Virus record (IMG/VR): IMGVR_UViG_2671180770_000010
Span: 1 to 8,162 of that record
Strand: one strand, 5' to 3'
DNA from: a virus
Taxonomy: Duplodnaviria; Heunggongvirae; Uroviricota; Caudoviricetes
DNA length: 8,162 nt
Shown here: positions 1 to 8,162 of the stretch, in pieces
Position numbering within the stretch: position 1 is the stretch's first letter
How the letters are laid out: every line of letters begins with the position of its first letter
Position numbers and translations under genes: made by a program
Notes under the pieces: generated by a model
What the model was told of the DNA's origin: nothing
The model's database searches: none
What the model saw: the letters and a program-made list of their open reading frames with translations, nothing else

Positions 1-40
1 GTTGACGAAGACGATTCAGATTTTCTTCTTTTGTTGCCAT
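1..40 (-). CDS. 5' end of a lambda gpFI-like DNA-packaging protein gene (partial, runs off the window)
   Basis: Minus-strand ATG at 38-40 with GGAGG at 46-50 upstream. The 13 translated residues MATKEENLNRLRQ resemble the lambda FI N-terminus as I recall it. It lies directly downstream of a capsid gene and terminator, as in lambda E-FI. Only 13 codons are visible. Confidence 0.4.
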   Translation of the reverse strand, partial: MATKEENLNRLRQ

Positions 41-54
41 CTCAGCCTCCTGTG

Positions 55-83
55 AAAAAAGACACGGGGGCATTTCGCCCCCG
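55..83 (-). terminator. Rho-independent terminator after the truncated capsid gene
   Basis: On the minus strand, stem CGGGGGC, loop GAAAT, stem GCCCCCG, then TGTC and a T6 run. It begins 8 nt after the stop at 92-94. Confidence 0.6.
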
Positions 84-91
84 CTCACGGA

Positions 92-883
92 TTATTTCAC
101 CTGCACCACCACAAACTCATCCGGATCCGGCAGCACCATCAGCGGTGCGGACTGCGTCATGGTGAATTCACGGGCCGGATCGCCCACAGTCAGCCAGTGT
201 TTCGGATAACGGGAAGAGGCCACCACACCTTCGGACAACGCCTGCGCATCCTGAATGGCACCATAGCAACGAATGCCCTCTGCTGCCGTATTCCCCAGGA
301 CCAGTGTGCCCACCGGCAGATAACGTTTTTCGGTACCGTCGTCTGCCACATAAGACGTTTTCGCCACCACAATGGCCAGATCACCGTAATACCCTTTGAA
401 AGACACCACCGCTCCCAGGTCTTTCACTGCCGTTTCGAGTTGTGAATTTGAGCCGCGACGGGTATCCAGTTTTTCGCGGAACAGCTTAAAGCCATTCAGC
501 AGACGCCAGACCGTACCGTCCATAATGGCAATATTTACAAGACCGCTGGCCTGATCGCAGTAAAGGTCAATATCATGCGTCGGATCAAACGTATCACGGT
601 CCTGCTCAGACCATTTTTTACCGTCGGCCTGCTCAATGTTATTTCCTTCAGAGCGTCCGAAATCCACCTCGACCGTGTCAAACTGTTCCCCTTCCATGGT
701 GTATTTGCCATACAGCACGGCATTCACCGCCTGCATTTCTTCCACCTGGACAATGGCGTGCTCTTCCTGTTTGAGGTTATCGGTAATGATACGCAGACGA
801 CGGTAGGCCGGGTCGTTCAGCTGAGCCGGATCTTCACCAGGAAGGCGCTCAACCGCCTGCTGGTAATTAAATTCGTGTTTGGG
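92..883 (-). pseudogene. N-terminally truncated lambda gpE-family major capsid protein (roughly residues 80-341 retained)
   Basis: The translation carries gpE-like blocks (VEEMQAV, KLDTRRGSNS.LETAVKDLG, GDPAREFTM.QSAPLM, PDEFV.VQ). Hand translation upstream of the listed start shows the homology continuing to 883 (PKHEFNYQQAVERLPGEDPAQLNDPAYRRLRII). It then ends at an in-frame TAA at 884-886 with no start codon. Candidate internal starts are GTG 743-745 and ATG 734-736. Confidence 0.8.
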
Positions 884-1019
884 TTACATGAGTCAAATAT
901 GAAAGGATGTGAATGATTTGATTACGTTTTAGCTATAGAATTGAAATGGAAAATCCTTGAATGCAATACAACGTGCAATACATGGATGAAAACCATCACT
1001 CATTTAACAAGAGGAATCT

Positions 1020-1925
1020 ATGCGCTCACCCAACAGAATGCATGAACGCTCAACATTTTATAAGTATATGTCGTTGAATACCGCGAAGATTGTTCTTGAT
1101 TCATGCAGCCTTAGATGGAGTTCTCCGGTCCTATTTAATGACCCTTTTGATGTTCCAAGAGAAGTTATGCCTGGTATTAACGAAATTAATATTGGCAAAG
1201 CTTTAGCCCGCAAGTTAATAGCGGAGTTGATTACCCCCAGAGAAGACATACAAAATTTAAATCCTAGAATTAGAACAATGCTAAGTGATTTCCAAAAGTC
1301 ATTTCCTTTAGGCATACCCGCAGGATTAATTGAAAGATTTCAAGAAATGGTAAACATTCCACCAGTTGGGATTGGCGCTCCTGCGGCAATACAAGAAATG
1401 AAAGATGTCTGGCGAGGAATGCTTAATAACAGAAGGATTTTGTGTTTATCTGAGAGCCCTATAATCACTCCTATGTGGAATCACTATGCCGATAAATATA
1501 AAGGTATAGTTATCGAATTTGATTGTGTAGACTTTCTGGATAGCGCTTGGTTAATAGCCAAACCTATGAAATACACAGATGAAATGCCTCTAACTCACAC
1601 TGCTGAAGGGATGGCCGAGTTGCTTTTCATGCCAGACAATAAGTCAATTGAATATATCAATAATGAGATAATATTCATAAAAACAGAAGAATGGGCATAT
1701 GAAAGAGAGTGGAGAATTTCAACCTACGCTAGGCCAAATAGCACTGGTCAATATAGCGACTTAAAATTTCACCCTTTTGAGTTAAAATCTGTAATACTTG
1801 GTCCTCTTTTTGATGCCAGCGAGTTCGATGAAGTCGCATCACTAGTTAAGATGTATCCAAGAGCGAAATTATTTAAAAGTTCATTTGGGAACGACAGAAA
1901 AATATCCATAGTACCACTACCTTAA
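1020..1925 (+). CDS. Hypothetical 301-aa protein, DUF2971-like (tentative family assignment); candidate accessory or anti-phage cargo gene
   Basis: Long ORF with AGAGGA 5 nt before the ATG. It is strongly AT-rich compared with its flanks and is convergent with the neighbouring phage genes. Motifs YKY..L......L......SP.LFNDPFD, LCLSE and W.HYAD.YKG..IEFD match my recollection of DUF2971. Confidence 0.7.
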   Translation: MRSPNRMHERSTFYKYMSLNTAKIVLDSCSLRWSSPVLFNDPFDVPREVMPGINEINIGKALARKLIAELITPREDIQNLNPRIRTMLSDFQKSFPLGIPAGLIERFQEMVNIPPVGIGAPAAIQEMKDVWRGMLNNRRILCLSESPIITPMWNHYADKYKGIVIEFDCVDFLDSAWLIAKPMKYTDEMPLTHTAEGMAELLFMPDNKSIEYINNEIIFIKTEEWAYEREWRISTYARPNSTGQYSDLKFHPFELKSVILGPLFDASEFDEVASLVKMYPRAKLFKSSFGNDRKISIVPLP

Positions 1926-1956
1926 AAGGTCAAATGCTTTTGACAAATAAAATCTA

Positions 1957-1980
1957 TCGCCAGTTTTACTGGCGACTTTT
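1957..1980 (+). terminator. Rho-independent terminator downstream of the 301-aa gene
   Basis: Stem TCGCCAGT (1957-1964), loop TTT, stem ACTGGCGA (1968-1975), then CTTTT. It sits between the two convergent genes. Confidence 0.5.
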
Positions 1981-2031
1981 AAGCAACAAAGAACCACCTA
2001 AGCACTCTTCCTACCTATGGTTTCATTTGTT

Positions 2032-2583
2032 TTAACTTCGCTGATTATCCTTGATATACCTTTCAGCCATATCTGGAATGTTATCTGAGATCTGGTAAGC
2101 TCGAATAAATGCTTTACTGACCTCCATCTTAATGAAGTCCTGATACCGTTTTTCCATGCCAGGAAACTGTCGACAGATCGCAAGTGGAAGACTATCAATG
2201 ATTGCTCCAACTTCCCCAGTTAATTTCGACAAGGCATAAGTCGCAAATGCAGTGTCAATTACCTCACCTGTTTCGCTGGCATTCTTCAGTTCCTGTGCGT
2301 CGGCCTGCGCACGCGTAAGTCGATGGCGTTCATACTCAATAGTCCCTGGCAGGAGATCTGCCTCGCTGGCCTGCCGCAGTTCTTCAACCTCCCGGCGCAG
2401 CTTTTCGTTCTCAATTTCAGCATCCCTTTCGGCATACCATTTTATGACGGCGGCAGAGTCATAAAGCACCTCATTACCCTTGCCACCGCCTCGCAGAACG
2501 GGCATTCCCTGCTCCTGCCAGTTCTGAATGGTACGGATACTCGCACCGAAAATGTCAGCCAGCTGCTTTTTGTTGGCTTCCAT
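2032..2583 (-). CDS. Terminase small subunit, lambda Nu1 family (mosaic, divergent C-terminal part)
   Basis: The first ~103 residues are almost identical to lambda Nu1 as recalled (MEANKKQLADIFGASIRTIQNWQEQGMPVLRGGGKGNEVLYDSAAVIKWYAERDAEIENEKLRREVEELRQASEADL...). The remainder is recognisably related but divergent and AT-rich. A lambda-like cos lies immediately upstream and the length (183 aa) matches Nu1 (181 aa). Confidence 0.9.
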   Translation of the reverse strand: MEANKKQLADIFGASIRTIQNWQEQGMPVLRGGGKGNEVLYDSAAVIKWYAERDAEIENEKLRREVEELRQASEADLLPGTIEYERHRLTRAQADAQELKNASETGEVIDTAFATYALSKLTGEVGAIIDSLPLAICRQFPGMEKRYQDFIKMEVSKAFIRAYQISDNIPDMAERYIKDNQRS

Positions 2584-2610
2584 TGTTCATTCCACGGACA
2601 AAACCAGAGA

Positions 2611-2800
2611 AAGGAAACGACAGAGGCCAAAAAGCCTGTTTTTAGCACCTGTCGTTTCCTTTCTTTTTAGGGGGTGTTTTTAATAAAAACATTAAGTTAC
2701 GGCGAAGAAGAACGGAAACGCCTTAAACAGGAAAATTTTCACAAATAGCGAAAAACTGCGCGCCTGACGCCCCGTAACGTTCTGGATCACCGGAAAGGAC
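2611..2800 (-). other. Lambda-type cos site: conserved cosB (about 2611-2758), variant cosN (2761-2772), cosQ-like flank (about 2779-2800)
   Basis: The minus-strand sequence GTTACG-GGGCGTCAGGCG-CGCAGTTTTTCGCTATTTGTGAAAATTTTCCTGTTTAAGGCGTTTCCGTTCTTCTTCG...GAAAGGAAACGACAGGTGCT...CTGTCGTTTCCTTTC...GTGGAATGAACAATG parallels the lambda cos/Nu1 leader as I recall it. The 12-nt cosN equivalent is GGGCGTCAGGCG against lambda GGGCGGCGACCT. Confidence 0.7.
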
Positions 2801-2828
2801 CCGCCAGCCAGAGCGGGCCCTAATTTCA

Positions 2829-3212
2829 TCAACCAATCAGCTTATAGCGACCATCCCGTGCATTGCGGCGTACACGCTCAATCTTGAGGCATAGCGCCGC
2901 ATCTGGCTTTTTTGGGACAGGTACGCGGCAATATTCAGAAGCGCGAGGAATATTATTTATCCAGTCGATCACTTCACTTAAATACCAGGCCTTACGCCCT
3001 TCCGTAACCTGCACACGCTCCGGGAACTCTCCACTAGCCTCAAGGTTTAGCAGTGTACGACGACTCAGGGTTGTAATTTCCATCACCTGATTCATATCAA
3101 CAAGGCGCTCGCTTAAACACATTTTGTCAGCGATAGCTTTTAATTCCTCTACAGCTGGATTCGGGTACATCATTTCGGCAATTGGCTTAAGGTCATTGTA
3201 ATCATTCTGCAT
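2829..3212 (-). CDS. AlpA/Xis-like HTH DNA-binding protein (127 aa), last gene of the capsid operon and adjacent to cos
   Basis: The C-terminal segment EITTLSRRTLLNLEASGEFPERVQVTEGRKAWYLSEVIDWI fits the AlpA-family MerR-like HTH pattern. The start ATG at 3210-3212 follows AGGGGGA, just after the upstream gene's TAA. Confidence 0.6.
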   Translation of the reverse strand: MQNDYNDLKPIAEMMYPNPAVEELKAIADKMCLSERLVDMNQVMEITTLSRRTLLNLEASGEFPERVQVTEGRKAWYLSEVIDWINNIPRASEYCRVPVPKKPDAALCLKIERVRRNARDGRYKLIG

Positions 3213-3223
3213 TGTATCCCCCT

Positions 3224-3565
3224 TTACACACGAGCCAGCGGCTGAACAGAAATACCTGAGCCAACAAACGCTGCAACCTTTACTGACAGTTCTTTAACAG
3301 ACTCAGGCCAGTTCAGAGCATCAACATTTAAGACACCTGTCTTATAGACCTGAGCCTGTGTTTTTTTCGCGGTGTCGATTTGTACAGCGGAAACATAAAC
3401 CGCTTTACCTACGCTCGAACCATCCCATACTACCAGTGCACCTGTTGCATCTTCCTGCATCAGTGGCGTAAATGCAGGAATTACCCCTTTATTAGCTGAA
3501 AATATCCCCAGCGTAGTCACCAGTGCTTCAGTGCCAGCCATGAGTTCAGTGTAATGAGTAGCCAT
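3224..3565 (-). CDS. Head decoration protein, lambda gpD family
   Basis: 113 aa against lambda D at 110 aa. Shared blocks include TPLMQEDATGALVVWDG (lambda TPLMLDTSSRKLVAWDG), YKTGVLNVDALNWPES (lambda YKSGTFRYEDVLWPEA) and AFVGSGISVQ (lambda AFAGTAISIV). A GGGGGAG ribosome-binding site sits between the upstream stop and the ATG. Confidence 0.8.
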   Translation of the reverse strand: MATHYTELMAGTEALVTTLGIFSANKGVIPAFTPLMQEDATGALVVWDGSSVGKAVYVSAVQIDTAKKTQAQVYKTGVLNVDALNWPESVKELSVKVAAFVGSGISVQPLARV

Positions 3566-3574
3566 TGCTCCCCC

Positions 3575-4615
3575 TTAGCCAATGCGAACGGTAACAAAAC
3601 GATTGATGCGGGCCGGTATTGGCTGTGGTGCTGAATGTGTCTGCACATATTCAATAGCCGGATCACCAGGCACAATATAGTTTTTCGGTGCAAGTTCGGC
3701 TTTAGTCAGCCCCATTCGGATTAGCTCCGGATCCTGAATACCGCCATAGGCGACAATCCCCTGAAGAGCCGTATTGCCAAGCACCATCAAATCAGGATCA
3801 AGGAAATGTTTTTCTGTTCCGTCCTCGTCGGTATAACGCCCGCTGTAAACAACAATCGCAACATCGCCCATATACCCTTTAAAACTCACCGAATCACCAA
3901 GGTCTTTAAGGGCCGTTTCCAGTTCGGAATTAGAACCACGACGGGTATCCAGAGCCTCTTTTATAGCTCTGAATGAACGGTATTTCTTCCATACATTACC
4001 GCCCATAATGATAATATTAGTGACGCCCTCACTAAATTCTGTGTAGCTCTCAATATCATCATTTGGATCAAAAGTTTCTTTATCCTTACCTGACCACTCA
4101 GCACCGCCAGACTGAGTGATGATATTTTGTGGTTTAATATTCCAGTCCAGCTCATAACGTTCAATACCATCGCCCTCAATGATATTTTTCCCCGTTGTGA
4201 TTGCCTGAACAGCAAGCCATTCAATACGTGCACGAATAGCTTTAGCTTGATTTACAATCGCCTGTTTAACTTTAATATTACGCGCCCCAAAAGCATTGTA
4301 TTGCTCAGGTGATACACCAGCAGGGCGCACAGCTAACTTATTTGGATCAATGCTGCTTTTCGGCTTCATATAGCCTGGACGAATTGTTTTTGATTCGTAC
4401 CCTTCGTCACGTGAAACTTTACTACCCACCATAGGAGAACAAAACGCTGCAATTGGGATATTTGGATCGTCGATTGTATCAAGAATAATATCGCGCGATT
4501 CAAACATTACCGAGCGAGTAAAAAACAAACTGGTAAACAACGCATTTAGTTGTTTTTGTACATCTACAGCATTAACCACCTGTACAAGCTGAGTAGGCGA
4601 ATATAAATCAACCAT
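3575..4615 (-). CDS. Major capsid protein, lambda gpE family (complete, 346 aa)
   Basis: gpE-like blocks run the full length (LYSPTQL..., RPGYMKPK, ITQSGGAEWS, DTRRGSNSELETALKDLG, GDPA.E). I moved the start to the ATG at 4613-4615, which has AAGAGG 6 nt upstream. The 404-aa ORF in the track is an upstream over-extension. Confidence 0.85.
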   Translation of the reverse strand: MVDLYSPTQLVQVVNAVDVQKQLNALFTSLFFTRSVMFESRDIILDTIDDPNIPIAAFCSPMVGSKVSRDEGYESKTIRPGYMKPKSSIDPNKLAVRPAGVSPEQYNAFGARNIKVKQAIVNQAKAIRARIEWLAVQAITTGKNIIEGDGIERYELDWNIKPQNIITQSGGAEWSGKDKETFDPNDDIESYTEFSEGVTNIIIMGGNVWKKYRSFRAIKEALDTRRGSNSELETALKDLGDSVSFKGYMGDVAIVVYSGRYTDEDGTEKHFLDPDLMVLGNTALQGIVAYGGIQDPELIRMGLTKAELAPKNYIVPGDPAIEYVQTHSAPQPIPARINRFVTVRIG

Positions 4616-4789
4616 ACGCATCCTCTTTGCATTCATTAAAAATAATTGTGGATATATGCTATCACCGATATTTGTCATGCGAACACATGCAACCGAGTGC
4701 AATGTTGTATAAAGTTTTGGGGTGACAACTTCAGTGCGGACAATTAGTGTTAATATCTTCACTCCCTTTGGTCGGGATTTATGTAGCAT

Positions 4790-4821
4790 GCCGGAAAATT
4801 TATTTTTTCCGGCCTTTTTTT
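4790..4821 (+). terminator. Plus-strand intrinsic-terminator-like hairpin between the SSB and capsid genes
   Basis: Stem GCCGGAAAA (4790-4798), loop TTTATT, stem TTTTCCGGC (4805-4813), then C and a T7 run. The T-run follows the hairpin only on the plus strand, which is antisense to the surrounding genes. Confidence 0.4.
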
Positions 4822-4832
4822 ATTGGCAATAT

Positions 4833-5282
4833 TTAAAACGGGATATCATCTCCCCATTGCTCATTATCTCCCACTGGTGGCTGGCTTCCTTGCTGATCTG
4901 CCTGTTGTTTTGCTCTGTTCAGTGCGTCAGTAGCCTGCCCCTGTTGGCCTTTTTTGCCGCCCGGTCGCACCGATCGCGCACTGATTACGCTGTCTGCGAT
5001 AACCTGCCAGCCCTGCCGCGTTTCGCCGTTCTGTCCAGTCCACTGGCTCATCTGCATGTTACCCGCCACGCTTAGGAGTTCGCCTTTGTGATGCTTTGCC
5101 AGCGCGTCGGCTTGTCTGCCAAACGCCAGGACAGATAACCACATCGTCGCCTGACCGTCATCCGACTGACTGCAGGGCAGTGATACCGCCATACGCGCCA
5201 GCGTCATGGGGGTGCCCTTGCTGGTCTGTTTTGTCTGCGGGTCGTCCACCAACCGCCCGTAAACTGATATTTGCGCCGTCAT
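4833..5282 (-). CDS. Single-stranded DNA-binding protein (SSB family), 149 aa
   Basis: OB-fold-like N-terminal region (ISVYGRLVDDPQ...TKQTSKGTPMT..., WLSVLAFGRQAD), a Gly/Gln-rich linker and the canonical acidic tail DDIPF. Its ATG overlaps the upstream gene's TGA as ATGA at 5279-5282. Confidence 0.8.
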   Translation of the reverse strand: MTAQISVYGRLVDDPQTKQTSKGTPMTLARMAVSLPCSQSDDGQATMWLSVLAFGRQADALAKHHKGELLSVAGNMQMSQWTGQNGETRQGWQVIADSVISARSVRPGGKKGQQGQATDALNRAKQQADQQGSQPPVGDNEQWGDDIPF

Positions 5283-5524
5283 GCTGCCTGCTCTCCGGAC
5301 TTAATATTGATTGTTGTCACTTCCTCCGCTTCAGCAATCTCCCGTTCGGTCAGAGTGGCAAAATTTGCAGCCGCCGTTGTCATGAATGCGCTAATCAGTT
5401 CGGGATGTGCTTTCGCGTATCCTTCCCCGGCGTTGCGGTCGATGATTTTTATCGACACCCTTAACCAGTGTTCCGTCAAATCAAGGGCGTGCGATTGTGA
5501 TTTTTTTGTGTGCTTCGCTGTCAT
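5279..5524 (-). CDS. Hypothetical 81-aa protein, translationally coupled to the SSB gene
   Basis: ORF sits directly downstream of the iteron region and overlaps the SSB start by ATGA. I do not recognise a family. Confidence 0.5.
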   Translation of the reverse strand: MTAKHTKKSQSHALDLTEHWLRVSIKIIDRNAGEGYAKAHPELISAFMTTAAANFATLTEREIAEAEEVTTINIKSGEQAA

Positions 5525-5570
5525 AGGCTTTATCTCACAGCAGTAAATTAAAATTTTTGCGTTTTAACCC

Positions 5571-5798
5571 TTCACCTGTTCACCTTTTGATATTTTCTCT
5601 TTTAATTCATAATGTTAATGGGTGAACAGTTTCACAAAAACTATTCACCAACTGTTCACCACTGTTCACCCTTGAAGCTCAATAAACAATCAAAAAGGTG
5701 AACAGTGAATAGTTTGGTGAACAGTTCATAAATAACTGTTCACCCTATAATATACTGATATAAAAGATATTTATGACAGGGTGAACAGTGGTGAACAG
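5571..5798. repeat. Iteron array (P4 ori/crr-type TGTTCACC repeats); putative replication origin
   Basis: About ten copies of CTGTTCACC or its complement GGTGAACAG in both orientations (5576-5584, 5621-5629, 5652-5660, 5662-5670, 5697-5705, 5716-5724, 5736-5744, 5780-5788, 5790-5798, plus degenerate copies). An AT-rich stretch lies at 5745-5779. The array is adjacent to the primase gene. Confidence 0.75.
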
Positions 5799-5811
5799 TT
5801 ATTCCATAAGT

Positions 5812-7632
5812 TTAATTTTTGCTATCGTCATTAGTGACCGATACACATGATGGCATCCAGTCTTCTGATTCCTCCGTCAGTGTCACGTTTGAACGCAAAC
5901 CGTGCTTCGTTTTCCGTTTCATATACTCCCTGCCATATTCCGCCATTGCCCCCGGCATATCTTTACCGAAGCGCGTCAGTGTTACAGGTTTACCAAACCC
6001 ATGTGCCCTCATATAAGCCAGATAGGCATGATAGAGATACCTGCGTGGGCTGAATGGCACAATTTCAGCATTACCCACTAACAGGCCATCACACATTACC
6101 GATGCCATGAGATAGCCGCAGAAGTCCACCAGCGAATCCCCCTCTCGCTTTATCGCCAGTGCTTCTTCAGATTTCTGCTGCTCATATAACAGGCGTCTGG
6201 CTTCGTCCTGATCAGCAAACCGTGTAAGCAGATGACGAATCACTACCGCCAGCTCACCTTCTATTTTTTCCGCCAGCATCGAATCGCGTTCGTTCTCCGG
6301 TACAACTTCCGAAAAATTGAATATCACCCGACGACGTGAGATCCCCCCGCTGCGGTCACTGAATGACATGGCGTTATTGTTAACCACCAGCACTACTGCC
6401 GGAATACGCGTTGAATAGGGGGCTTTGTGTTTCGGGTCAATTGCCACCTTGTCACCGCCTGTAATGGCCTTAATCCCTGCCCCATCACCAGCGTAGCGGG
6501 TCATATCTGGCATGATAATCAGCGAAAAGCCAACCACTAACGCACGTTCCCTTGCATCTTCCAGCGCCTTCATGCTTGCTGATACTGTATTAGCCTTACC
6601 CGCCAGCATGGTGCAAATCTCCGCCATCACGCTTTTACCACTTCCCCCCGGCCCTGTTACCTCAATGAATAACTGCCAGTCGTACCGGTTCGCCAGCACC
6701 ATGAATAATGCCGCCAGTACGCGATCTGCCTTGCGGTCATTCTCAGCCACCGAACGGCGCAACCACTTCCAGAAATTCGGCGCATGTGTTGCCAGCGTTT
6801 CCCCCTCTGCTGGTGGGCTGAAAGGTAATTCACTGGCAATTAACAACCAGTCGTTTTTGTTATGCTCCCGAAAATTACCTGTTCTGGTATCAAATACCCC
6901 GTTACTGAATCCAATCAGGTTACGGGCTGTATTCCCCATTACAGGCAAACTTAACTTCATGGTATCTACCGCCGATTTAATGGCGTTCTGCGAATAGCTG
7001 ATCTCCGCATCAATGAAAATCTGCGCCATAGCACGCTGTAACTCTTTATCCTGAACCGGCTCCCATACAACGCCGTTGTAATGATGAACGGTGTCAGAGT
7101 CGGCATTGATTGCCAGTTCGCCGCCGTAATGTGCCAGGAGAACTTCACCGCGCTGGCTGGCCCCCATCTGATTCAACGCCAAAGATGAAGCACGCTCGTC
7201 ATTTTTGCGCTCTGCCTTCTTCACTGGCAGTTCAATCACCAGACTTTCCCCATGCTCCGCTTCAGCTTTTAGGCCGACAAGGCGCGGAGTCCAGTCTTCA
7301 GGCTCTCGATCAACAAAGCTACGGTAACAACGTGCTTCCTTTACGCCTGCAATAGCAAGTAATGTCGCAACCTTCGTCAGACTTTTCTCTGCAATCTTTC
7401 CGGCACGATAAACACGCACATAATGACGGCCTTCATCGATAATTTGCATATCATCCAGGTTTTCCAGTTGTTCCGTACCCAGAATTACTGGTGGTGTATC
7501 ATCTGCTGCAATATGCTTACCTGCCCATTCATTCCATTCTTTTGCATGGCTCCAGGCATCACTGCCAGCAAAAATGATGACTTCCGTCATTTTGTCGCGC
7601 GGTTGGTATTTTAAGTTCGGAGCACGTTTCAT
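5812..7632 (-). CDS. P4 alpha-like replication protein (phage/plasmid primase-helicase family; pri-rep)
   Basis: 606-aa ORF with the Walker A motif GPGGSGKS (EVTGPGGSGKSV) in its central region. Its size, architecture and the adjacent TGTTCACC iterons are typical of P4-family and PICI primase/helicases. The ATG overlaps the upstream ORF stop as ATGA at 7629-7632. Confidence 0.85.
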   Translation of the reverse strand: MKRAPNLKYQPRDKMTEVIIFAGSDAWSHAKEWNEWAGKHIAADDTPPVILGTEQLENLDDMQIIDEGRHYVRVYRAGKIAEKSLTKVATLLAIAGVKEARCYRSFVDREPEDWTPRLVGLKAEAEHGESLVIELPVKKAERKNDERASSLALNQMGASQRGEVLLAHYGGELAINADSDTVHHYNGVVWEPVQDKELQRAMAQIFIDAEISYSQNAIKSAVDTMKLSLPVMGNTARNLIGFSNGVFDTRTGNFREHNKNDWLLIASELPFSPPAEGETLATHAPNFWKWLRRSVAENDRKADRVLAALFMVLANRYDWQLFIEVTGPGGSGKSVMAEICTMLAGKANTVSASMKALEDARERALVVGFSLIIMPDMTRYAGDGAGIKAITGGDKVAIDPKHKAPYSTRIPAVVLVVNNNAMSFSDRSGGISRRRVIFNFSEVVPENERDSMLAEKIEGELAVVIRHLLTRFADQDEARRLLYEQQKSEEALAIKREGDSLVDFCGYLMASVMCDGLLVGNAEIVPFSPRRYLYHAYLAYMRAHGFGKPVTLTRFGKDMPGAMAEYGREYMKRKTKHGLRSNVTLTEESEDWMPSCVSVTNDDSKN

Positions 7633-7916
7633 TTGTTACCTCCGGCAACTAACATTGCCCGAATTTTGCGGATATAGCCTGCGGCACGCCTCTGATTATC
7701 TGTCTTGCAATTTTTTACCAGAATGAAATCTCTTTCGAACTGCTGACGCGGCATAACACATTCAAAATCATAACCATCACGCAAATAAGAGACACGACGA
7801 TCATCAACCGAAATAATCTTTACCCGATAGCCATAGCTGTCTTTGAAAATATCCCCAAGGCTGATTTTTGAATGAGTTTGACCGCTGGCAATAAAGCCAG
7901 AAAATTTATTTTTCAT
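7629..7916 (-). CDS. Hypothetical 95-aa protein, translationally coupled to the primase gene
   Basis: ORF has GGAG 8 nt upstream of the ATG at 7914-7916 and an ATGA stop/start overlap with the primase gene. No family recognised. Confidence 0.5.
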   Translation of the reverse strand: MKNKFSGFIASGQTHSKISLGDIFKDSYGYRVKIISVDDRRVSYLRDGYDFECVMPRQQFERDFILVKNCKTDNQRRAAGYIRKIRAMLVAGGNK

Positions 7917-8162
7917 TTTTTATTCTCCGGTATAGCTCTGATCGTGTATTTTTATAGCTTCATCCAGCTCTTTGATGACAGGATCAAGTAACGTAATTAA
8001 CGCTCCAGCTAAATTAGCATCCCGTTCATCGTGTTCCGCATTTGTTGTCCCATCAAGCCAGGTTGGGCTTTGTTGAATAAATAAGATTTCGTGCGAACGA
8101 CCCTGTAGCTGGCTGGATTTTCAGGCAATACGCACGCTTTCTGGCATCCCAGCCTTTGTCAT

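Follow-up and report, generated by a model that had tools for sequence, protein, structure and literature searches.

A very probable helper-embedded satellite of the Eco567.11capE type in the split capsid gene of a lambda-like prophage

The 8,162-nucleotide stretch of Caudoviricetes DNA analysed here (IMG/VR record IMGVR_UViG_2671180770_000010, positions 1 to 8,162; hereafter the window) carries replication, capsid and packaging genes beside a fragment of a lambda-type major capsid gene, E. All of its long open reading frames (ORFs) except one lie on the minus strand, and all core genes share that strand with E and with the adjoining gene FI. Here we report that the window very probably spans some three quarters, on the right-hand side, of an Eco567.11capE-type helper-embedded phage-inducible chromosomal island (HE-PICI), situated inside the major capsid gene of a lambda-like prophage. 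The family was already published in 2023, and the element is hence not of a new kind. Coordinates are window coordinates throughout, and L-numbered loci (L001, L002 and so on) are comparison loci; E* and D* denote the satellite's own capsid and decoration proteins. The features on which the argument depends are these:

1-39, minus strand: start of the helper prophage FI (DNA-packaging) gene
92-883, minus strand: 3' fragment of the helper major capsid gene E, residues 80-342
876-885, minus strand: attR crossover core AACCCAAACA
963-982, minus strand: doubled arm motif TGTATTGCnnnnTGTATTGC
2032-2583, minus strand: full-length Nu1-type small terminase subunit (TerS), 183 aa
2584-2828, minus strand: lambda-type cohesive-end site (cos)
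2608-2720, minus strand: cosB elements R3, R2 and R1
2761-2772, minus strand: variant cosN GGGCGTCAGGCG (lambda: GGGCGGCGACCT)
2790-2802, minus strand: cosQ-like GGGTCCT
2829-3212, minus strand: AlpA-family helix-turn-helix (HTH) protein of the late block, 127 aa
3224-3565, minus strand: D*, head-decoration protein of the gpD family
3575-4615, minus strand: E*, major capsid protein of the gpE family, 346 aa
4833-5282, minus strand: single-stranded DNA-binding protein (SSB)
5279-5524, minus strand: conserved 81-aa protein (phrog_1231)
5576-5798: replication origin, 10 CTGTTCACC iterons (9 exact) in both orientations with AT-rich spacers
5812-7632, minus strand: Pri-Rep, a superfamily 3 (SF3) helicase with a C-terminal origin-binding domain
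7629-7916, minus strand: DUF4222 protein, its gene overlapping the start of the primase gene

Scans against Pfam and PHROG confirmed each gene that the initial annotation had named from the sequence alone, at the positions it gave: the Nu1-like TerS, the lambda-type cos, the AlpA-like, gpD-like and gpE-like proteins, the SSB, the iteron origin and the P4-alpha-related helicase and origin-binding protein are all present. It is also true, as had been stated, that the window holds no large terminase subunit (TerL), portal, protease or tail gene, and the central idea, a cos-packaged phage satellite with capsid and decoration paralogues of its own, was correct. The proposal of a new hybrid element does not survive, as the late and replication proteins are 97-100% identical to those of Eco567.11capE, a member of the published HE-PICI family (PMC10111431). 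The range covered by that annotation began at 2032; the E fragment, the FI start, the att core, the arm motif and a DUF2971 gene lie below it.

Eco567.11capE is an 11-kb PICI of E. coli NRG857c, where it lies in the capsid gene of a lambdoid prophage integrated at icd; it “bears its own capsid gene”, is the prototype helper-embedded PICI, and occupies a site, E:Phage_cap_E:80, for which 201 instances were reported (Tommasini, Mageeney & Williams 2023, PMC10111431). After SOS induction a composite of prophage plus satellite excises and replicates, as followed by quantitative PCR (qPCR) and deep sequencing, and the satellite then excises precisely and late, restoring helper gene E (PMC10111431). 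The window element resembles this prototype in its E site, att core family, doubled TGTATTGC arm motif and gene order, and in its variant cosN combined with a lambda-type cosB. It differs in having a full 183-aa chimeric Nu1 where all that the prototype retains is a 64-aa remnant ORF, Nu1-like over about its first 13 residues, in carrying DUF2971 cargo rather than DUF262+HEPN, and in its helper E allele, which is CFT073-icd-like with the core AACCCAAACA. Each testable defining feature of an HE-PICI at E:Phage_cap_E:80 was found in the window element or at the loci of its relatives.

The junction with the helper is contained in the window. The E fragment at 92-883 matches positions 119-329 of the Pfam Phage_cap_E profile and, compared with the intact E of the prophage at icd in CFT073, is 92.8% identical over residues 80-342; its homologues in four genomes are annotated as a capsid pseudogene “missing N-terminus”. 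This gene is truncated by the satellite insertion; a TAA supplied by the satellite closes the E frame directly upstream (in gene direction), within “...ttgactcatgtAACCCAAACAcgaa...”. The FI start, which translates as MATKEENLNRLRQ (compare MATKEQNLKRL in gpFI of L003) and agrees with the annotation of homologous loci, is a property of the helper and not of the satellite.

The attR crossover core was identified by reading the sequence, by comparing attL, attR and intact attB, and from published att alignments. It departs at one helper-side base from the 10-bp identity block AACCCAAGCA that is common to attL and attR in the E:Phage_cap_E:80 group (PMC10111431). Comparison with the attL of L003 and with the intact E of the CFT073 icd prophage assigns this difference to a different helper E allele (CFT073-icd-like). 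The satellite-side arm of attR occurs verbatim in the published att alignment, for example in Eco11272.11.E_Phage_cap_E_80. The core string itself does not occur in the published att files, and the attB of this helper E allele (AAGCCGAAACAC; L006 36330) differs from the satellite attP core at 3/12 positions; the integrase therefore accepts a divergent target. HE-PICIs are further marked by an attP-specific doubled TGTATTGC motif ~81 bp upstream and ~132 bp downstream of the attP centre (PMC10111431). In the window the doubled motif lies ~82 bp upstream of the core centre (4 octamer matches against 0.34 expected), where the element reads TGTATTGCacgtTGTATTGC, and a second copy adjoins int, the integrase gene, in L001, L003 and L004 (L001 31186-31205, ~134 bp from the attL core).

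The remainder of the island was followed in relatives. By megablast, 17 complete E. coli genomes cover at least 80% of the window and many more cover its core. Four complete genomes, with the element at different chromosomal positions, were examined: to the right of the window end each has a small ORF, an Icd-like gene, variable genes, AlpA and a tyrosine integrase, and the island is flanked by two halves of E, one of 246 nt (“missing C-terminus”) and one of 789-792 nt (“missing N-terminus”). Prophage genes in the order Nu1-TerL-W-portal-S49 protease-D (Nu1-A-W-B-C-D) lie upstream of the island, and FI, FII and the tail genes downstream. The E 5' fragment is found beyond int in L001-L005. The islands measure 10,571-11,078 bp and read int-alpA-...-primase-ori-SSB-E*-D*-HTH-cos-[terS]-defence gene. 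In L001, whose island is window-like, the integrase is 99.5% identical to that of the prototype, and most IMG/VR loci long enough to include the gene show 99-100% identity, with 53% at one locus. In the source genome of the window one would expect, past the right end, the Icd-like gene, AlpA and int, followed by attL (...AAGCCGAAGCACTTAGC...), ~79 codons from the 5' end of E, and D-C-B-W-A-Nu1-cos, with FI, FII and tail genes on the low-coordinate side. Gene E of a lambdoid prophage is accordingly split by a discrete island that is bounded by att sites and encodes an integrase.

A lambdoid head region, either ordinary or rearranged and decaying, in which head genes have been duplicated and a satellite is altogether absent, would agree with the location inside a lambdoid prophage and with the damage seen in some helper prophages, such as the frameshifted portal gene in L002. 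We regard this as highly improbable, given that the att-bounded element has entered different prophages, at different places in the chromosome, precisely at one and the same codon, and given the element's own integrase, AlpA, Pri-Rep and origin, and the precise excision of the prototype seen experimentally (PMC10111431). The initial annotation had held that finding the segment inside a lambdoid prophage with its head module would speak against a satellite. That arrangement is literally what the four E. coli genomes contain, but satellite status stands, because what splits E is a discrete island bounded by int and att, and location in a prophage is a defining feature of the family.

The late block occurs at a coverage of at least 80% in 365 of 5,426 complete E. 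coli genomes (~7%), in line with a published prevalence estimate of ~5.4% (PMC10111431). A scan of IMG/VR for the variant cosN returned 52 loci, of which ~48 are satellites and 3 are ordinary prophage cos sites. Throughout the ~48 satellite loci the spacing within the E*-D*-HTH-cos block is constant, in contrast to a variable primase module (100/87/47% identity), terS and cargo. IMG/VR contigs of ~11 kb terminate in helper E sequence.

Several observations weigh against the HE-PICI assignment. The window stops before attL and int, so that the left boundary of its element is taken from relatives; none of the 52 IMG/VR loci shows an attP junction, a circular contig or terminal repeats; and the prototype yielded no infectious particles (PMC10111431). 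In addition, the cosN cohesive end differs from that of lambda at 5/12 bases, which makes cutting by the helper terminase uncertain. The variant cosN is, however, also present at the three ordinary prophage cos sites (L009, L043 and L059), each followed by a lambda-like Nu1 and, at L009, also by TerL (99% identical to that of this helper type), portal, D and E; it is therefore probably usable by a lambda-like terminase. A satellite-only cosN is ruled out by the same three loci. The distribution of these sites suggests that cos regions have been exchanged between satellites and helpers.

The cos site as a whole aligns with the lambda-type cos of a helper lambdoid prophage, and its cosB R3, R2 and R1 elements are nearly identical to the helper's. 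The adjoining Nu1 (Pfam Phage_Nu1, E 8e-82; PDB 6hn7_B and 1j9i) is a chimera. Residues 1-100, which correspond to the structurally solved DNA-binding domain, share 98% identity with lambda and helper Nu1, whereas residues 101-183, the half responsible for self-assembly and gpA binding, share only ~41% with the lambda type. No phage record matches this C-terminal half at 80% or more, and its DNA is found in 32 of the 5,426 complete E. coli genomes, always at 99% identity or above. A match of the C-terminal half to a helper Nu1 of the CFT073-icd type was ruled out, the identity being 26.8% against 40.7% to the lambda type. Its closest relatives are 132-aa Nu1-like proteins without the DNA-binding domain in Klebsiella (L060 and L061; 9001-9399), encoded on AlpA-bearing islands where they adjoin defence-like genes (FRG, DEAD/ResIII).

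Most members of the family have no terS of any kind, and its absence from 11capE has been reported (PMC10111431). In a third variant, the L003 type, cosB and TerS both differ, which points to an exchange of cosB and terS as one cassette. No Rpp homologue was found, only the HTH similarity that Nu1 shares with these proteins (E 6e-4 to RppA; PDB RppC, E 0.053). The 127-aa HTH protein, the 81-aa protein and the DUF4222 protein were also considered as Rpp-type packaging adaptors and rejected, PDB and BLAST searches having returned no Rpp homologue for any of them.

The satellite capsid protein E* (Phage_cap_E, E 6e-41) is 99.7% identical to its counterpart in the prototype and 54.7% identical to c1499 of EcCICFT073, while nothing in 50,697 phage records comes closer to it than lambda E (41.7%); with so distant a phage match, E* is therefore best seen as an old satellite lineage and not as a recent capture from a helper. 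D* (HDPD, E 4.5e-15) is 99.1% identical to the prototype's and 38-45% identical to helper D proteins. Between the window and L040 the ratio of nonsynonymous to synonymous substitution rates (dN/dS) is 0.092 for E* and 0.084 for D*, so both genes are maintained by purifying selection. The HTH protein encoded beside them (Pfam, E 7.6e-9; PDB 8c3t, E 2e-9) is 100% identical to the prototype's copy. The mechanically called ORF of E* spans 3575-4789 and begins 58 codons upstream of the annotated, homology-supported start at 4615; this extension is probably untranslated.

A pair of this kind is known from EcCICFT073, the model Gram-negative PICI, which encodes the capsid protein c1499 and the decoration protein c1500 (Fillol-Salom et al. 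2018, 2019; PMC6092414); the presence of a capsid and decoration pair on a satellite is therefore no novelty. The capsids that package EcCICFT073 are of phage size, deletion of c1499 or c1500 left its interference with lambda unrelieved, and multimer packaging has been proposed for it. It shares with the window element the synteny DUF4222-Pri-Rep-ori-small ORF-SSB-capsid-decoration-cos (43-83% identity), a lambda-like cosQ and cosN, and lambdoid helpers. Both follow the Gram-negative PICI plan, which the window element displays together with its relatives: int-alpA, pri-rep, an iteron origin directly 3', and a late region that contains cos. EcCICFT073 itself is integrated in the chromosome and not in a helper, and it has no lambda-type cosB, its RppA retargeting the helper TerS, whereas the window element has a helper-type cosB and no Rpp. 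The window's Nu1 gene occupies the position of EcCICFT073 rppA.

With these comparisons in hand, E* and D* could act as a back-up for the interrupted E, as the satellite's own shell, or as agents of interference with the helper. The first possibility, suggested in PMC10111431, is that they are simple back-ups for the interrupted helper E and its D partner, in use before satellite excision or without it. It accords with an insertion that inactivates helper E while attP brings no replacement sequence, and with capsid genes being the commonest late genes in Gram-negative PICIs (PMC10111431). E* is only ~42% identical to helper E, however, so their interchangeability is doubtful; helper D is intact, which makes a D back-up superfluous; and PICIs that are not embedded, such as EcCICFT073, carry the pair despite an intact helper E. 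We hold it to be a possible explanation, though one that we would not favour.

Less likely still is that the invariant E*-D*-HTH-cos block specifies the satellite's own decorated shell, perhaps smaller or otherwise altered in size, built on the helper's portal, protease and TerL while the insertion keeps helper E off. The chimeric Nu1 would then serve as a factor for packaging specificity or interference, and the element would stand between classical PICIs and the capsid-forming PICIs (cfPICIs). That E* and D* occur together, evolve under purifying selection (dN/dS 0.09) and lack a close phage counterpart (best 41.7%), and that their block is invariant while other modules are swapped, would fit such a role. 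A precedent exists in SaPIbov5, whose capsid homologue Ccm makes small capsids (cited in the PICI literature). SaPIbov5 is, like the window element, a cos-packaged satellite with a paralogue of the helper major capsid protein. Ccm redirects capsid size, whereas the window's capsid gene is paired with a decoration gene, and its closest tested relative, EcCICFT073, has a syntenic E/D pair at 55% identity, full-size capsids, and deletions of the two genes that bring no relief of interference. The redirection of capsid size raised by the initial annotation is, on these grounds, unsupported. The lack of terS in most family members and the capacity of a lambda head for four genome copies likewise count against a separate shell.

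In the replication module, Pri-Rep (D5_N, DUF5906 and Pox_D5) is 99.7% identical to the prototype's, the SSB (identified by profile searches) 97.3%, the DUF4222 protein 98.9% and the 81-aa protein 100%, the last with 83% identity to its EcCICFT073 counterpart. The C-terminus of Pri-Rep matches the origin-binding domain of P4 alpha (1KA8, E 1.9e-24), a domain that fits the TGTTCACC iterons of the origin. By chance the whole window should contain 1.5 iteron copies; of 200 shuffles none has as many as 12, and the observed count is not attained in any. The layout of the origin agrees with that of Gram-negative PICI origins as described in the literature. No TOPRIM, zinc-ribbon or other primase domain was detected in Pri-Rep residues 1-160; TIGR01613 scores 96.3 bits, below its cut-off of 108.7, and NCBIfam models returned for the window only the SSB and this sub-threshold P4-family primase domain. 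Of the P4-alpha replication attributed to the element at the outset, the helicase and origin-binding domains are upheld, whereas neither the primase domain nor any other P4 hallmark gene was found. In L010, L034, L037, L044, L047, L054 and other IMG/VR loci, Pri-Rep is 43-49% (or 84-87%) identical to the window's, and in the same loci the E*-D*-HTH-cos block is 99-100% identical. Judged from these alignments, swapping of the replication module does not involve the late block.

The origin-binding domain and its iterons, a size of ~11 kb, int, AlpA-type and Icd-like genes, and an integrase of a related super-clade are points of likeness to P4, and a P4-like satellite of P2-type helpers might be considered on their account. 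Yet the cos is of the lambda and not the P2 type, real capsid and decoration genes are present, an N-terminal primase domain of the P4 type is not detectable, and protein family searches assigned no ORF in the window to P4 morphogenesis, capsid-size or regulatory families. An Rfam scan of the window and of the complete L001 island likewise found no P4-type CI/seqA immunity RNA at the gathering threshold. A full cfPICI (Alqurainy et al. 2023) would share with the element its own HK97-fold capsid protein and, in the window variant, TerS; neither the window nor any of the complete L001-L005 islands has TerL, portal, protease or head-tail connectors, and the element is therefore not a cfPICI. Membership in either class is very improbable, and these readings, like that of a plain prophage, were rejected on their defining features.

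Two further features of the window belong to its variable zones:

1020-1925, plus strand: DUF2971 accessory cargo gene, candidate anti-phage system PDC-S31
7917-8162, minus strand: closing stretch of the variable “Bro” zone, with the 3' portion of a 74-aa ORF

The DUF2971 gene (Pfam DUF2971; PADLOC PDC-S31, E 2.5e-32) sits between the attR end and the Nu1 gene. The slot between terS or cos and attR is a variable hot spot for cargo (L002 10064-11780; L003 9038-9799; L004 8955-9827), which in other copies holds AbiJ-like, restriction endonuclease, or NsnA/PD-T4-2-like DUF262+HEPN genes. A second variable slot adjoins alpA. Near the other end of the window, similarity to most relatives breaks at ~8065, inside the 74-aa ORF upstream of DUF4222, whose N-terminal part is replaced in the window and there includes a stop codon; the pattern resembles a recombination breakpoint on the border of the “Bro” zone. 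A terminator-like hairpin at 1956-1976, between the convergent Nu1 and DUF2971 genes, may be a bidirectional terminator that closes the satellite late transcript. Consensus scans for promoters and terminators in the window were not enriched relative to shuffles.

For an HE-PICI of this type, the following course may be proposed. Late transcription of the helper would read into the satellite, Pri-Rep would fire the TGTTCACC iteron origin, and the helper terminase would cut the resulting concatemers at the satellite's lambda-type cos. No Rpp adaptor would be needed, because the cosB of the window is of the helper type. A phage-sized head would then be filled by some four copies of the genome (4 x 10.6-11.1 kb, in total 42-44 kb).

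HE-PICIs are phage parasites that switch off the capsid gene of their helper by inserting into it, and that ride the helper's induction, replication and late transcription in cis, as was established in 2023 for a near-identical element. Specific to the present variant are its full-length chimeric Nu1 and its DUF2971/PDC-S31 gene, the latter lying in a swappable slot for anti-phage cargo. The remaining interest of the element lies in its E*/D* pair, in its variant cosN, and in a Nu1 that joins a DNA-binding half identical to the helper's with a foreign TerL-binding half, and that may either help packaging or poison it.

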